Part shown: piece by piece, positions 4,768 to 53,183 of the stretch
How the letters are laid out: every line of letters starts with the position of its first letter
How positions within the stretch are numbered: the stretch's first letter is position 1
Virus record (IMG/VR): IMGVR_UViG_2630968701_000002
Direction: 5' to 3' (one strand)
Length of the DNA: 64,000 bases
Source of the DNA: a virus
Lineage: Duplodnaviria; Heunggongvirae; Uroviricota; Caudoviricetes
Notes under the pieces: generated by a model
Databases searched by the model: none
Told to the model about the DNA's origin: nothing
Seen by the model: the letters and a program-made list of their open reading frames with translations, nothing else
Translations under genes and position numbers: made by a program

Positions 4768-5973
4768 TTATGATGCTTTGAAATTGAACACAGGTTTCAT
4801 TACTTCCACAATATTTACTGACTCACTGACCACATCAATGATATCTTCTAATGATTTATAAGCCATCGGTGCTTCATCTAATGTACATTCATTGACTGAT
4901 GTTGTATAAATTCCACTCATAGATTTCTTATACTCTTCCATATCAACTGTTTCTCTGGCTTTTGACCTGGACATTAACCTGCCTGCACCATGTGGTGCTG
5001 ACTGATTCCATTCATCGTTCCCTTTTCCAATAGCAAGAATCGATCCGTCTCGCATATTTACTGGAATTAGAACTTTTTTACCTTTATGTGCTGCGATCGC
5101 ACCTTTTCTTAAGATCATTTCTTCTGTGTCAATGTAATTGTGAATTGTATGAAATGATTCTTCTGCTGTCATACCAGTTCTTTCTAAAATGATCTGAGCC
5201 ATTTTTTCTCTGCTTTTTCTTGCAAATTCCTGACAAATTTCTACATCATGTAAGTAATCTTTGAAAGATTTTCCATATAACCAGCAAAGTGAATTTGGAA
5301 TATTTAAAATTTTTGATTCATATTCTTTTTTCAATTCTACTAATGCTGCTTGTATCTCTTTGCTTTTACCAGTAGATTTGTAAGTTTCGATGATCGCTGC
5401 TTTCTTAGCAGCATATTCTTCTTTTCCCATATGTAATTCAATGGCAAGCTGTTGATAATATTCAGCAACCTGTTTTCCGAGATTACGACTACCGGAATGA
5501 ATGATAAGATAATAGGCTCCATTGGATGCCTGATCGATTTCAATAAAATGGTTCCCGCTGCCTAATGTTCCCATAGATTTTTCTAACCTATCAGGATTTT
5601 TCAAGCTTTTATAACATCTTAATCGTTCAAGATCAAAATCAGAGTTATTTTCTTCCCATACATCTCTTCCAGAAGGAATATAATGACAAACTTCATCGAT
5701 TTTTTTAAAATCAAGCTCTTTTCCTTTTAATTGAATTGTATACATTCCGCATCCGATATCAACACCGACAACATTTGGGCATGCTTTATCAGATACTGTC
5801 ATAGTTGTACCAATAGTACAACCTGCTCCTGCATGTACATCAGGCATAATACGAATCTTGCTGCCTTCTGTTAATCCATAATTACACATGGTCCGAATCT
5901 GTTCAATCGCATCATCTTCGATCACTTTTGCATAACAGATAGCAGTATTTACCTTTCCTTTGATTTCTAACAT
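4768..5973 (-). CDS. rtcB: RtcB RNA ligase (3'-phosphate/5'-OH)
   Basis: MPDVHAG, VGVDIGCG, GTLGSGNHFIE, HSGSR, HNYID, RKGA, PHGAGR, DEAPMAYK. Confidence 0.95.
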   Translation of the reverse strand: MLEIKGKVNTAICYAKVIEDDAIEQIRTMCNYGLTEGSKIRIMPDVHAGAGCTIGTTMTVSDKACPNVVGVDIGCGMYTIQLKGKELDFKKIDEVCHYIPSGRDVWEENNSDFDLERLRCYKSLKNPDRLEKSMGTLGSGNHFIEIDQASNGAYYLIIHSGSRNLGKQVAEYYQQLAIELHMGKEEYAAKKAAIIETYKSTGKSKEIQAALVELKKEYESKILNIPNSLCWLYGKSFKDYLHDVEICQEFARKSREKMAQIILERTGMTAEESFHTIHNYIDTEEMILRKGAIAAHKGKKVLIPVNMRDGSILAIGKGNDEWNQSAPHGAGRLMSRSKARETVDMEEYKKSMSGIYTTSVNECTLDEAPMAYKSLEDIIDVVSESVNIVEVMKPVFNFKAS

Positions 5974-7738: not shown

Positions 7739-8296
7739 TTAAAATTTCACACGATTTGAAAGACGATGCTTTAAAACAGACCATCCTGCTTCATGACTTG
7801 TTTGGATGAATAATGAGATAGTATCACTTTCTCCATCCAACTCATTGTATTTTACTCGTGCTTCTGTATGATCAGATGTAATAAAACATTCTTTTTCATC
7901 TTTCTCTGAATTGTAAGAAAGTACACGATATCGAGGATATCCTTCTTCTTTTATTGCTTCAACAGAGTATGGAATATCAATGTCAGGTAAAATACCGGAA
8001 AGCTTTGATGCGAGTGTCGTATAGGCAATATCATAAGCTTCTTCCAAGTTTTCTGCTTTGACGTTAAAATTACCAAAACAAGCTTTATCATTGATATAAA
8101 GTTTAAAACAATACTCAATTAATGGAATACTTCTTTTCGTTACACCCCATTTGCACAACTTTTCACTCAATTCATTGTACAATTTAGGTCTTGTCTGTTT
8201 ATCGATATGATAACTAAGACATAATTCGATACTATCGATCATATCATCGATAAGATAGCGGCGATTCTGTTCTATGAAATTGTTAGTATTTGTCAT
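7739..8296 (-). CDS. Hypothetical protein, paralog family B
   Basis: LYNELSEKLCKWG...LIEYCFKLYINDK...LPDIDIPY shared with the next gene. Confidence 0.7.
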   Translation of the reverse strand: MTNTNNFIEQNRRYLIDDMIDSIELCLSYHIDKQTRPKLYNELSEKLCKWGVTKRSIPLIEYCFKLYINDKACFGNFNVKAENLEEAYDIAYTTLASKLSGILPDIDIPYSVEAIKEEGYPRYRVLSYNSEKDEKECFITSDHTEARVKYNELDGESDTISLFIQTSHEAGWSVLKHRLSNRVKF

Positions 8297-23986: not shown

Positions 23987-24084
23987 ATTTCTCCTTTTCC
24001 TGTTGATTTTTTCTTTTTCTATAAATATGAGAGAATTTTTAAAATTTATTTTTCACATATAAGATTCTCACACTTCAAAGGAAG

Positions 24085-26456: not shown

Positions 26457-27200
26457 TTACTTTTCCCTCCTTAATACTTCTTCAAGTGTTGTATAAATTA
26501 AGTTCTTTTCTGGTTCCATTCGTGTTCCATCAGGTCTTGTACAATGAGCGTTTAGCATTGCTTCTTTGGAAACAGATATGAATTTTCCTTTTGTACAAAA
26601 AACTCCAAACAACTGATCATTTTTCTTTTCATTTCCTTGAACTCTGACAACGATCGCTCCGTTATTTTTCAATGCCTCCAGACAGATTTCGCCAAAATAT
26701 GATTTCATGAATTTTACTTCTGATTCCGCAAACGCACCTGGCATATGGTAAACATCAACATCAGAATTCACATCATCCGTACAATTCAGAATTTTATCCT
26801 GATGAATCCGTAAAAGCTGATCTCTGAATTTTTTAGCCTCTTTGATTTCTTCCGAAGTGGCTTGCTCTACCAGTTTTTTTCGTTCTTTTTCCCGATCCTG
26901 CATATACAGATTTTCCGTATATCGAAAGATCAAAGGTTCCTGTCCCCATTCTCTCATACGGGCTTTATATGTTTTTTCTCCATATTTTTCTAAGAACCAG
27001 TCATGAAATTCATACAGGGTTTCTTTTTCTTCTTTTGTGAACTCTTTTTTTGTTGCTATCATTGCGAGCAGAGTTGCATTATAAGCACTCAAAAAACGGA
27101 GCATCTTGTCATTTGAAAAAGATCTTCCCATATAATTTTGAAAAGCATTGATCAAAGATTCTTTTTTCAGATCGATGATCGGAACATTATTTGCATTCAT
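26457..27200 (-). CDS. Hypothetical protein in the secB-secA unit
   Basis: 247-aa soluble ORF, 2 nt from the secA start. Confidence 0.7.
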   Translation of the reverse strand: MNANNVPIIDLKKESLINAFQNYMGRSFSNDKMLRFLSAYNATLLAMIATKKEFTKEEKETLYEFHDWFLEKYGEKTYKARMREWGQEPLIFRYTENLYMQDREKERKKLVEQATSEEIKEAKKFRDQLLRIHQDKILNCTDDVNSDVDVYHMPGAFAESEVKFMKSYFGEICLEALKNNGAIVVRVQGNEKKNDQLFGVFCTKGKFISVSKEAMLNAHCTRPDGTRMEPEKNLIYTTLEEVLRREK

Positions 27201-27609: not shown

Positions 27610-27714
27610 ACATTCTCCACCTTTCTTATTTTATCTACATTACAAATATGAGTTTTTTTAAAAAAAAGATTTTTCACATATAAAAAACAGGTAGAAAAAT
27701 CCACCTGTTTTTGT

Positions 27715-27840
27715 TTAGATCTTTGAGATCACAAAGTTTGCTGCATAACTGACAACTGTTATAAATCCAGAACATAAAGCTGTTCCAGCAACGATTGTGA
27801 CAAAGTATTTAGCAAGATTTTTTGCGTTTGGAAGATACAT
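27715..27840 (-). CDS. SecE-like single-TM protein, 41 aa, not in ORF track
   Basis: MYLPNAKNLAKYFVTIVAGTALCSGFITVVSYAANFVISKI; strong RBS AAAGGAGAAAAAAC; overlaps the secY 3' end; resembles the WPxxxELxxYT hinge plus TM of SecE. Confidence 0.55.
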   Translation of the reverse strand: MYLPNAKNLAKYFVTIVAGTALCSGFITVVSYAANFVISKI

Positions 27841-29134
27841 GTTTTTTCTCCTTTCTGAGCCAGGATTTTTTGCGATAATTTACAATTAAACGTTCTCCTT
27901 TGAATGAACGAACCGTTTCTAACATCGCTCCAACAATAATGATCAGTGTTGTTCCGCCAGAATTTAAAGAAGATACATTAGATAATCCTGTAATTGCCAT
28001 TGGAACTGTGATCAGTACAAATAATAACCCGATACAGATCCATACAATCTGATTCACGGATTTTTTCAGATATTTGATCGTTTCCTCTCCAGGTCTTACA
28101 TTTTCGATCACAACGCCCTCTTTCTTTAAATTGAAAGCCATTTGATATGGATTAAACGTGATAGAAATATAAAAATAAGAAAATGCAATCATAAGGATCA
28201 GGTAAACTGCAAATCCAATCATATATTCTGGATGTTTTTTCATGAACCAGTTTGACATATTAAAATACTGCACCCATTTGATATTGCTGCCACCAAAAGC
28301 TGAAAACAATGTGATCATCTGAAATACGGTACTTGTTAAGATCGCAGGCATAACGCTGATCAATCTTCCGCTGATAGATAAATAAGAAGATTCTCTAACA
28401 GAATCACTTTCTACAGGAGCACTGCTGTACTGTAATTTGATTCTTTTTTCTATCTCATTCATGAAAATCGCAAGAATGATCAGAATGATGACAACAGCAA
28501 TTGTTGCTACCCACATCCATGCAGGATGTTTTTTCATAAATCCATAATATAAACTCTGCACATCATTTGGAATGTAAGTGATCATATTCATCATTAATAC
28601 AACCGTAATACCATTTCCAATACCTTTTTTATCAATAACTTTTCCAAGTAAGATCAGTAATAAAGATCCAAAACAAAGGCATCCAACGGTGATCAGATAT
28701 GTTGTCCATTTTTGATCTTTTAAGATCCCATTTGCTCGCAGCATGATTCCAAAAGAAAATGCGCCAACAACACTTAAAAAAATACTGAATGAAACTGTGA
28801 TACGTTCTAACTGTTTCTTTCCATAAGCTCCATTTCGTTCTAATTCTTCTAATTTTCGAAATACAACAGTAAGCATCTGAATAACAATACTTGCAGATAT
28901 GTAGATAGAGATGCCCAATGCACATAATGTCATATTCTGAAACGCTCCACCACTAAATCGGTTCATCATTCCCAAAACACTTGTTTTACTAACTAAATAA
29001 CTAAAATATGCTGTATTGATTGTCGGAATAGGAATAATATTTCCAAGCTGTACCACGGTCAGACAAAGGATCGTGATCAAGACTTTTATTCCAAATCGTT
29101 CTTCTAGTCGTTCTTTTTTCATAGTTCCCTCCAA
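27809..29134 (-). CDS. secY: SecY translocon subunit, divergent
   Basis: About 10 TM segments; IPIP, FSGGAF, ALGISIYISASI, GIGNG, VRPGEET (conserved RPG), GGTTLIIIVG. Confidence 0.92.
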   Translation of the reverse strand: MEGTMKKERLEERFGIKVLITILCLTVVQLGNIIPIPTINTAYFSYLVSKTSVLGMMNRFSGGAFQNMTLCALGISIYISASIVIQMLTVVFRKLEELERNGAYGKKQLERITVSFSIFLSVVGAFSFGIMLRANGILKDQKWTTYLITVGCLCFGSLLLILLGKVIDKKGIGNGITVVLMMNMITYIPNDVQSLYYGFMKKHPAWMWVATIAVVIILIILAIFMNEIEKRIKLQYSSAPVESDSVRESSYLSISGRLISVMPAILTSTVFQMITLFSAFGGSNIKWVQYFNMSNWFMKKHPEYMIGFAVYLILMIAFSYFYISITFNPYQMAFNLKKEGVVIENVRPGEETIKYLKKSVNQIVWICIGLLFVLITVPMAITGLSNVSSLNSGGTTLIIIVGAMLETVRSFKGERLIVNYRKKSWLRKEKKHVSSKRKKSC

Positions 29135-29721: not shown

Positions 29722-29842
29722 ATAAAACTCCTTTCTTATTTTTTTCTACATTACAAATATGAGTTTTTTTAAAAAAAAGATTTTTCATATATAAAAAAAC
29801 AGATAGTAATTACACTACCTGTTTCGTTGATTAAATTTCATT

Positions 29843-38742: not shown

Positions 38743-38865
38743 TCACGACATCATATATATAACAATATTTGCTGCTATTGCAATCGTTGCAACGACCACA
38801 ATGATAGTGCATGAGACGATTGCAAGCCAATTATCCTTACACCATATATATAACCTTTTTAACAT
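38743..38865 (-). CDS. 40-aa TM peptide, N-terminus resembles family C
   Basis: Hand translation MLKRLYIWCKDNWLAIVSCTIIVVVATIAIAANIVIYMMS; not in track. Confidence 0.45.
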   Translation of the reverse strand: MLKRLYIWCKDNWLAIVSCTIIVVVATIAIAANIVIYMMS

Positions 38866-39862: not shown

Positions 39863-40264
39863 TTATTTCTCCTCATTTTTATCATATTTATGTTTCAATT
39901 CTGGATTATCGAAAATATTTCCTATGATTACACACTCTTCTGGATCTTGTGCTTCTCCGAAGAAATGGTTATACATCCATCCTTTTCTTGTAAGTGTCCA
40001 AGATGCATACTTCTCGTTCCAATGGACAATTGTACAACTTCCACATTTAAGAATGTCATTTTCAAAAATCAGCCTTCCATTCTTATCTCTTAGTCCTGTG
40101 CATTGACAGATGGTAGACTCATCTACTTGATGAGTCAGATTATTATTTTCAAAAGGTTGCTCAAAAATATAATGTTTTCCCATGAATACATAGTAAAATC
40201 CTTGCACCCATTCTCCATTGTCAATCCGTTTCGCTTTAAACAAAAATCTATTGTTAATTTCCAC
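39863..40264 (-). CDS. YopX-family protein
   Basis: FKAKRIDNGEWVQG...CQCTGLRDKNGRLIFENDI...IGNIFDNPEL. Confidence 0.9.
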   Translation of the reverse strand: MEINNRFLFKAKRIDNGEWVQGFYYVFMGKHYIFEQPFENNNLTHQVDESTICQCTGLRDKNGRLIFENDILKCGSCTIVHWNEKYASWTLTRKGWMYNHFFGEAQDPEECVIIGNIFDNPELKHKYDKNEEK

Positions 40265-51643: not shown

Positions 51644-51840
51644 GTCAATTGCCCCGCCCCATAAAGGGACGAGGCTTGTGACTCATCCGCAAAGTCCTAA
51701 CGTCATATCTTAAGATATGCTCCTTTGCTATATCAGATCTGATATACACACGGTACAGTGTGCCTGTGGTCACATCGCCGGACGATTGACAGCGCCCGTT
51801 TCTTTGTTCCGGCAGAAGCATGTCCGCCAGAAGATCTTAT
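51624..51840 (-). ncRNA. Predicted TnpB omega/reRNA with 3' guide CCGUUUCAAGAUGGGAAUGG
   Basis: Region from the tnpB 3' end through the right-end hairpin plus about 20 nt of flank; the 5' boundary is a guess. Confidence 0.6.
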
Positions 51841-53183
51841 CAATGTTCTTCTATTTTAAAACTAGGATACCTGTCACCAGATACATATCTCAGACCAAGC
51901 TCAAAGAGATTCATGGCTCCGACACGATCGTCATTGGAACGATATCCGCAGACATCGCAGATATATTCGTGTATTTCTCGATGCCGGTTCTCCTTGTGGA
52001 TCCTTCCGCATTTTGGACATCTTTGGGATGTATAGGCTGGGGATACTTTGATCACATCAGCGCCGATCTCTTTTGCTTTATATGTAAACAGCTGTTCCAA
52101 CTGATAAAATGCCCAGGATCGAGTCTGCCTTCTCTGTGTCTTGGATCGTTTGGAAAGATTCTCTTCTTCAAAGCTGACGCCTTTTAAATCTTCCAGAACA
52201 AACAGTGTCTCTGGTCCGTATTCTGTTACGAGTGTCTTTGTGATCTGATGGTTCACATCAGTCATCCAGCGGTTCTCTCGTCCGGAGATACGTTTTAAGG
52301 CGCGTTTTGCTGATCTGCTTCCTTTCGACTGGAGTTCAGCTCTGACATTTGCAAAAGTGTCTCGTTTTTTCATAAGATCTTTTCCATTGATAAAGTGACT
52401 TTTTTCCTGTTCATCATATGTAACGGCAAGGAAACGCAGCCCACGATCGATCCCGACAAGTTGCTCTGGATTTGTACGATCGAATGTGTCTGGTGTAGTC
52501 TTTGTCATTGGAATATGGAAATACCATCTTCCTTTCAGAGAGACAAGTTTTCCTGTCCCAAAAGACCAGGATCCGTCAAAATACGGCTGAAAGACTTCTG
52601 ATACATGGAAAGACACTTTCACTCTCTTTTTCAAGGTATTGATGGATAGTTTCGTGCCATTTTTTACAAAAGAGTAATCCCTTCCACGGACAAGATCCGC
52701 CTGAGGCCTGCGAAAATGGATCGGCCGCCATAACCATTCCAGAGTCCGATCGATGCTCTGCCATTCTCCATCTGCATCTTTGTAACGGAATGGGCGATCT
52801 GACAATTGTGTTTGAACTGTCTTATATCTCGCAATGACGGTCTTAAAGCTGGAAAGTGTCATCTGTGACTTCAATCCATAACAATCTCGAAGTTGATGAT
52901 ACATGACATTCTTCAGCTCGACAAAGTTCATTGGAAACTCATGGTCAAACATATATTGAGAGATCTCATTGCATGCTGAAGCATAACGTTCTGTTAATTC
53001 TCGAAAGAGACGATCTGCCGCTTCATCGGTATCGATCCGTAATTTCATTGTCTTGACGATCTTTCCCATAGACTTCTCCTTTCCTGTTCTACCACAAATA
53101 TGAGATTTTTCATAAGAAATATTTTTCTATAAAAAATAAAACCGCCCCATAAAGGGGCGTGGTTTCAACCGAATTAATTACTT
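51644..53183 (-). mobile_element. Non-autonomous IS200/IS605 element (tnpB only, IS1341-like), TAM TCAT, right end TGAC
   Basis: Related hairpins at both ends (CGCCCCTTTATGGGGCG; CGTCCCTTTATGGGGCG); guide tetranucleotides GAAA and CAAG predict TCAT and TGAC; excision restores a His-Pro-Phe frame. Confidence 0.88.
51840..53069 (-). CDS. tnpB: TnpB RNA-guided endonuclease
   Basis: RuvC-I VGIDRG, RuvC-II VLEDL, CPKCG/CDVCG zinc finger, RuvC-III NDDRVGAMN. Confidence 0.93.
   Translation of the reverse strand: MGKIVKTMKLRIDTDEAADRLFRELTERYASACNEISQYMFDHEFPMNFVELKNVMYHQLRDCYGLKSQMTLSSFKTVIARYKTVQTQLSDRPFRYKDADGEWQSIDRTLEWLWRPIHFRRPQADLVRGRDYSFVKNGTKLSINTLKKRVKVSFHVSEVFQPYFDGSWSFGTGKLVSLKGRWYFHIPMTKTTPDTFDRTNPEQLVGIDRGLRFLAVTYDEQEKSHFINGKDLMKKRDTFANVRAELQSKGSRSAKRALKRISGRENRWMTDVNHQITKTLVTEYGPETLFVLEDLKGVSFEEENLSKRSKTQRRQTRSWAFYQLEQLFTYKAKEIGADVIKVSPAYTSQRCPKCGRIHKENRHREIHEYICDVCGYRSNDDRVGAMNLFELGLRYVSGDRYPSFKIEEH

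Follow-up and report, generated by a model that had tools for sequence, protein, structure and literature searches.

Where does a SecY channel encoded by a mobile element find its SecE? SecE has been described as an amphipathic helix and a tilted membrane helix that jointly brace SecY (PMC3604715). In the window, the 64,000-nucleotide stretch of DNA analysed here (33% GC, nearly all genes on one strand, no ribosomal-operon context), an initial annotation had pointed to a hidden SecE-like ORF at the end of a secY gene, lacking the amphipathic helix and perhaps joined to SecY by a frameshift. The comparisons described below lead us to regard this ORF, mini-secE, as probably encoding a SecE that is shortened at its N-terminus, is translated separately and partners the divergent SecY of the element, in a secY–secE–secA export cassette standing beside the Sec genes of the host.

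The ORF is real and does overlap the end of secY: it starts at an ATG and shares the last 32 nt of that gene, in the +1 frame (Table 1). It is led by the standard RBS of the element, 7 nt 5′ of the ATG, and the run of six A residues (A6) that had been noted lies between the two, followed by a single C. The protein has one hydrophobic segment (best 19-mer at residues 13–31, Kyte–Doolittle 1.94) with two lysines on its N-terminal side, and its predicted structure is a single helix spanning residues 4–40 (pLDDT 81). The hairpin that begins 2 nt past the stop codon was missed by a consensus terminator scan. Mini-secE has been overlooked by annotation: gene callers skipped it in most of the loci and contigs fetched, and a one-residue variant of the protein is annotated as a ‘hypothetical protein’ (WP_273701102.1). 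Elsewhere in the window (38743–38865, minus strand) there is another RBS-led ORF under the usual gene-calling size, of 40 aa with one strong TM segment.

Table 1. Features of the sec locus, in coordinates of the window.
Feature	Position	Strand	Remarks
Element secA, 751 aa	24199..26454	-	directly after secE in L001, L002, L004, L007, L008, L125, L190
SecB-like gene, 132 aa	27211..27609	-	weak match, Pfam SecB E 0.032, below cut-off
Terminator-like hairpin with U tail	27683..27712	-	-16.7 kcal/mol, z -6.1, 0/200 shuffles
mini-secE, 41 aa	27715..27840	-	3 residues, hinge Pro, one long TM helix; family match, conservation, selection
A6 run, the RBS spacer; no conserved shift site	27842..27847	-	absent or broken in relatives
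Shine-Dalgarno AAGGAG of mini-secE	27848..27853	-	standard RBS of the element
Site of the secY stop in four related lineages, lost in the window	27854..27856	-	15-residue read-through tail over the secE start
Element secY, 437 aa from ATG	27809..29122	-	Pfam SecY E 8e-61; ~35% identical to chromosomal Lachnospiraceae SecY

The SecE chain of PDB entries 8ya0 and 5eul aligns with mini-SecE in the register proposed by the initial annotation, with the hinge Pro kept, Leu in place of Trp and no N-terminal helix. More generally, mini-SecE resembles the single-TM SecE of Bacillota (PF00584, TIGR00964; PDB 5eul/8ya0 chain E; chromosomal SecE of Lachnospiraceae) in the hinge Pro followed by P-N/x-x-K-x-L-x-x-Y, in the positive charges N-terminal of the helix and in one long hydrophobic helix that runs in gap-free register to the C-terminus. 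It differs in its length (39–43 aa in the mini-SecE family, compared with at least 61 and a median of 69), in the replacement of Trp by Leu, Ile or Val, the loss of Asp and the lack of an amphipathic helix, and in its location behind secY on a mobile element, whereas chromosomal secE lies beside nusG. The Trp, Gly and Asp shared without exception by 24 Lachnospiraceae SecE are either missing from mini-SecE or displaced.

Profile searches, named in the initial annotation as a check, singled out SecE as the only family but with scores under the curated cut-offs. In a Pfam scan of 24,736 families SecE was the sole match of mini-SecE (E 0.011, profile positions 17–53 of 55), at 16 bits for a cut-off of 22.7, and the sole NCBIfam match was secE_bact (TIGR00964, E 0.005), at 16.6 bits for a cut-off of 27.55. 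TIGR00964 matches four of the seven members of the mini-SecE family. Pfam SecE was also the only match for P0124, L002, L190 and L191, and it gave no match in five of the nine relatives scanned. More distant elements with the same gene arrangement carry longer ORFs (51 aa in L125, 54 aa in L190, 71 aa in L191 and 52 aa in L192). Among these, L191 passes the curated Pfam SecE cut-off at 23.0 bits, L190 reaches an E of 7e-4, and L192, for which a SecE match is recorded, has an intact helix core and a Trp-Pro hinge and is a near-canonical SecE. L190 forms a bridge, as it has the PN-x-K-x-x-x-KY pattern in common with mini-SecE and the Asp motif in common with SecE. At L192 (5234–9505), which belongs to a third family of elements, secA and a PemK-type toxin gene accompany secY and a secE that overlaps the secY stop by 1 nt.

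A profile built from nine element ORFs, with zero chromosomal SecE and with L192 left out, placed SecE chains in the top four positions among 177,635 PDB sequences (best E 7e-4), and these chains align with it gap-free from the hinge Pro; the profile of the close family alone found nothing in the PDB. Likewise, mini-SecE reaches 12.5 bits against a profile made from four ORFs of distant elements, a score that none of 2000 shuffles and none of 382 SecY membrane windows attains; the best of the small hydrophobic ORFs in the fetched loci that are not SecE has 8.3 bits. Alignment with chromosomal SecE by hhalign gave probabilities of 8% and 32% (P 0.004 and 0.0005). A profile of chromosomal SecE scores mini-SecE at only 6.9 bits, a value reached by nine of the 382 SecY windows and by a few unrelated ORFs. 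Together with the sub-threshold family scores, this is what might be expected of an unrelated small membrane protein whose likeness to SecE, a Pro followed by a hydrophobic helix, arose by chance. Nor were informative matches found by a Foldseek search with the single predicted helix (no match), by an Atlas search with mini-SecE (only unnamed clusters, below 0.9) or by whole-genome searches with the element profile (chromosomal secE not retrieved). Such a coincidence is nevertheless very unlikely, given that the ORF occupies the same position as sister-element ORFs with scores above or near the SecE cut-off, that L190 links the motifs of the two groups and that the PDB search, which is not circular, puts SecE first. 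Mini-SecE is most likely homologous to the hinge and the C-terminal, tilted TM helix of SecE, as judged from its sequence, with its position and the graded series of ORFs carrying much of the argument.

Conservation of the ORF in homologous loci, the absence of which would have spoken against the initial proposal, was found throughout. In all six lineages of the close element family (SecY 61–100% identical, the 64-kb window included), a separate ORF of 39–43 aa lies directly 3′ of secY, with its own RBS and an N-terminus of the form M(L/F)Y(L/I/V)P. The GGAG core of the RBS is present in five of the six, L007 having AGGAGG. More widely, a small ORF follows secY in all ten element lineages for which complete DNA is available, and at least 1000 contigs encode a protein identical to mini-SecE. 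The dN/dS between the mini-secE of the window and that of L001, its nearest diverged relative, is about 0.33; deeper pairs show a pS of 0.60–0.86 for a pN of 0.25–0.47, and in ten of ten pairs the fewest changes fall at codon position 2. On these substitution patterns, mini-secE is under purifying selection and is more than a chance ORF. Its protein is only 32–49% identical between lineages with SecY 61% identical. Among 1.8 billion representatives, a profile search recovered no clusters beyond the three already known for the mini-SecE family, and a sample of 401 Lachnospiraceae genomes contained no additional close element SecY.

What the family lacks is the surface arm. Only three or four residues precede the hinge Pro in the six close lineages, compared with at least 21 in chromosomal Lachnospiraceae SecE, whose amphipathic helix has a moment of 0.38–0.64. 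An earlier start cannot supply such a helix, since the open frame 5′ of the secE ATG is only 4–13 codons long in these lineages. The x-Trp-Pro motif of the hinge is altered too, with an invariant Pro and Leu, Ile or Val for Trp throughout the family. Because both the amphipathic helix and the hinge Trp belong to the family definition, we call mini-SecE a truncated SecE variant and not a canonical member. The proposal of a minimal SecE without the amphipathic helix is thus backed by synteny, conservation, selection and profile matches, while it falls short of the family cut-offs. We infer from the sequence that mini-SecE would work like the membrane arm of SecE. In E. coli, genetics has mapped essential residues of SecE to the cytoplasmic part that mini-SecE lacks, so that mini-SecE may not function as a full clamp. 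Translating the RBS spacer of L004, L007 and L008 in the secE frame yields a Phe that corresponds to position −6 of the canonical helix, and L008 has Phe-Lys there; a remnant of the lost end of the helix, or merely a T-rich spacer, could explain this residue.

The initial annotation offered a different way of supplying the helix: the basic tail of SecY might replace it, and a frameshift in the A6 run might fuse the two proteins. The relatives do not support the first idea. Four of the six lineages end SecY at KKKWL or KKDWI, 21 residues past the Glu-Thr of TM10, which is the tail length of chromosomal SecY, and their SecE is helix-less all the same; loss of the helix thus predates the tail and is independent of it. 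In three of these four lineages the secY stop lies inside the secE RBS or abuts it. The stop has been lost in the window lineage and in L001, where SecY continues through the RBS and 11 codons into secE, so that the 32-nt overlap results from this loss and the RKEK residues of the SecY tail are simply the secE RBS read through.

The fusion itself fares no better, as neither the A6 run nor the frame relation is conserved. L001 keeps the overlap but has AAATGTT instead of A6, and L015, L018 and run X9 each have a G within the A run. Over ten lineages the phase of secE relative to secY is 0 in three, +1 in three and +2 in four; as all three phases occur, no recoding event is conserved. A Shine–Dalgarno sequence next to an A run, which could be read as favouring a programmed +1 frameshift (prfB type) or transcriptional slip, is routine in this element: GGAG followed by at least five A occurs 20 times on the minus strand of the window, and runs of at least six A are found at 2.7 per kb of coding DNA, with nine in secY alone. 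By arithmetic alone a +1 slip in A6 would join SecY to the ORF, and its open product is topologically possible; moreover, in three lineages a single stop codon separates secY from a secE in the same frame, and the Phe at −6 mentioned above also counts in favour of this idea. The codons at the shift site are Lys-Lys-His, with no stop or rare codon as a pause signal, and no stable structure was detected there (z +0.9). The hypothetical joined segment, with a moment of 0.21, is not amphipathic and adds at most 0.5 bit against the chromosomal SecE profile. None of the 29 near-identical SecY records fetched has a longer, fused form, and the contigs of four sequencing runs show no indel at the A6 run, although contigs cannot reveal rare variants. 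A literature search found no paper on a SecY–SecE fusion. Low-level accidental slippage at A6 is possible. A programmed event that makes the fusion, or a SecY tail that stands in for the helix, is in our view extremely improbable, and we reject the recoded SecY–SecE fusion.

Several apparent exceptions were discarded. A shifted junction in L023 comes from a 1× coverage contig with several homopolymer insertions within 200 nt and is attributed to sequencing error. Assembly chimeras at the C-terminus explain P0160 (89 aa) and P0168 (47 aa), which are not SecY fusions. Stop-codon reassignment is rejected, as TAA, TGA and TAG all terminate genes within the window. The predicted model of the element SecY is poor (pLDDT 64, below 50 in the tail) and is therefore uninformative on the tail.

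The surroundings of mini-secE are those of an export cassette. In five of the six close lineages secA follows secE directly, and only in the window lineage are the SecB-like gene and a gene of 247 aa (26457–27200) inserted between them. In related loci, a penicillin-binding protein or large surface proteins adjoin the sec cassette. A promoter-like repeat of 59 nt occurs at 27629–27687, 29740–29798 and 24008–24066, two of the copies being 97% identical; it brackets a unit made of a 194-aa gene, secY and secE, and further copies lie elsewhere in the element. Other genes of the element encode an RtcB RNA ligase, an RlaP-type nucleotidyltransferase, a PARP-domain protein and TnpB (4768–5973, 40254–41294, 47309–48775 and 51840–53069, respectively).

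The element SecY proteins form a tight group of seven database clusters (61–100% identity), beyond which come chromosomal SecY, about 35% identical. Trees place the element SecY groups together and apart from chromosomal SecY, a topology to be read with a long-branch warning. Members of the SecY cluster are annotated as Anaerostipes hadrus, and the DNA of the element was found in gut metagenomes and in isolate-like sequencing runs of about 4 million letters. Searches of IMG/VR found no relative of the element secY, PLSDB held no near DNA match to the window, and plasmid and phage collections contained no close SecY. Element-type secY is present in two of 20 genomes of Anaerostipes species. One of these genomes (G010) has chromosomal secY, secE and secA alongside the element copies; G001 has an element-type secY plus chromosomal secE and secA. 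The element Sec genes are thus extras on a patchily distributed element, and the host keeps its own. In L004/L005 (1–11290), the sec cassette lies about 3.5 kb from genes of housekeeping type (methionine synthase, pseudouridine synthase) and from a transposase fragment, which suggests that it is chromosomally integrated there. In another Anaerostipes genome (G011:C1:3238139-3239189; L124, L126) the chromosomal-type secY is split over two frames, probably through an assembly error.

The presence of a canonical secE in the host raises a further alternative, namely that mini-SecE derives from SecE without being a clamp, the element SecY using the full-length SecE of the host and the small protein serving as an accessory, either as a temporary chaperone or as a competitor that tunes which SecY receives SecE. 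The missing helix and hinge Trp, and the rapid evolution of the protein, would agree with this. On the other hand, in every lineage mini-secE is strictly linked to the element secY and appears to be translationally coupled to it, which points to a stoichiometric partner, and the long branch that separates the element SecY from host SecY fits co-evolution with a SecE of its own. We consider an accessory role unlikely.

A truncated SecE dedicated to the element SecY would fit what is known of the complex. SecY without SecE is degraded by FtsH (PMC8082313), and the tilted SecE helix stabilizes the SecY hinge via TM1, 5, 6 and 10 (PMC3604715); an element with a divergent SecY would therefore need a matching helix, made in step with it. 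Since the secY stop lies in or against the secE RBS in three relatives, we infer that ribosomes ending secY could re-initiate at this RBS, giving roughly 1:1 synthesis. The mini-SecE helix would then pack across the back of SecY, against the TM helices contacted in solved complexes, and shield SecY from proteolysis, its short Tyr-Leu-Pro start being perhaps a remnant of the cytoplasmic contact. The surface helix may have been lost by stepwise N-terminal erosion, from the 52–71 aa of distant elements to 39–43 aa. Loss of the secY stop in the window lineage would have come later, leaving the overlap and a SecY tail that is probably a by-product. The channel and the element SecA probably export element-encoded surface proteins, and SecG may be borrowed from the host or be unnecessary.

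The literature searched contains no report of a helix-less SecE. Whether the Anaerostipes elements run a working, largely orthogonal translocon, with their own SecA and SecY and a SecE that naturally lacks the amphipathic arm, seems to us an evenly balanced proposition. If they do, the arm would be dispensable once SecY has adapted, and the ORFs of 71, 54, 52, 51, 43, 41 and 39 aa would provide a natural length series for mapping its role. A selected family of SecE reduced to the membrane helix, always coupled to its own SecY, would test the need of the surface arm for the stability and gating of the channel. It would also widen the Sec systems of mobile elements, beyond the SecYEG of the Hodor megaplasmids, to a SecA-containing type in a common butyrate producer of the human gut.

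The Hodor conjugative megaplasmids carry co-transcribed sec channel genes, for which export of surface proteins of the element has been proposed (Yuan et al., bioRxiv 2026, PMC12934698). Element-borne SecY, SecE and SecG are thus already known, and the truncated SecE is the new variant. In both cases a large element of gut Bacillota has its own sec channel genes. The Hodor elements, however, combine secY–secG–secE with a trigger factor and a sortase at 45–47% GC, the paper making no mention of SecA (PMC12934698), whereas the element of the window has the order secY–secE–secB-like–unknown–secA, a GC content of 33% and no adjacent secG. The loci L043:11255-11760, L062:11258-11760 and some 20 others like them, in human-gut contigs of up to 374 kb and 44–49% GC, fit the description of Hodor G1/G2; there, secG-like and secE-like genes come after secY at a site away from the ribosomal operon. 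Unlike mini-SecE, the SecE of L043 and L062 has 83–105 aa and a Trp-Pro hinge. As a separate observation, secA is present in many other Bacillota plasmid records; the Lactobacillus iners plasmid pC0011D1 (NZ_CP049227.1; L105:6944-11964) has a gene annotated as secG, secA and a very divergent secY, with no small secE after secY and with a hydrophobic ORF of 54 aa just 5′ of secA (7780–7944).

The accessory SecA2/SecY2 systems of streptococci and staphylococci set a second SecY and SecA beside the housekeeping proteins, and the small single-helix proteins Asp4 and Asp5 are thought to fill the roles of SecE and SecG in them. In general outline the element likewise joins an extra SecY and SecA to a probable small single-helix partner. 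Asp1–3, the glycosyltransferases GtfAB and a serine-rich repeat substrate were not seen among the scanned neighbours or the annotated genes of the window, which is part of the element. Moreover, the element SecY matches the canonical SecY of Lachnospiraceae, in which it differs from the SecY2 system.
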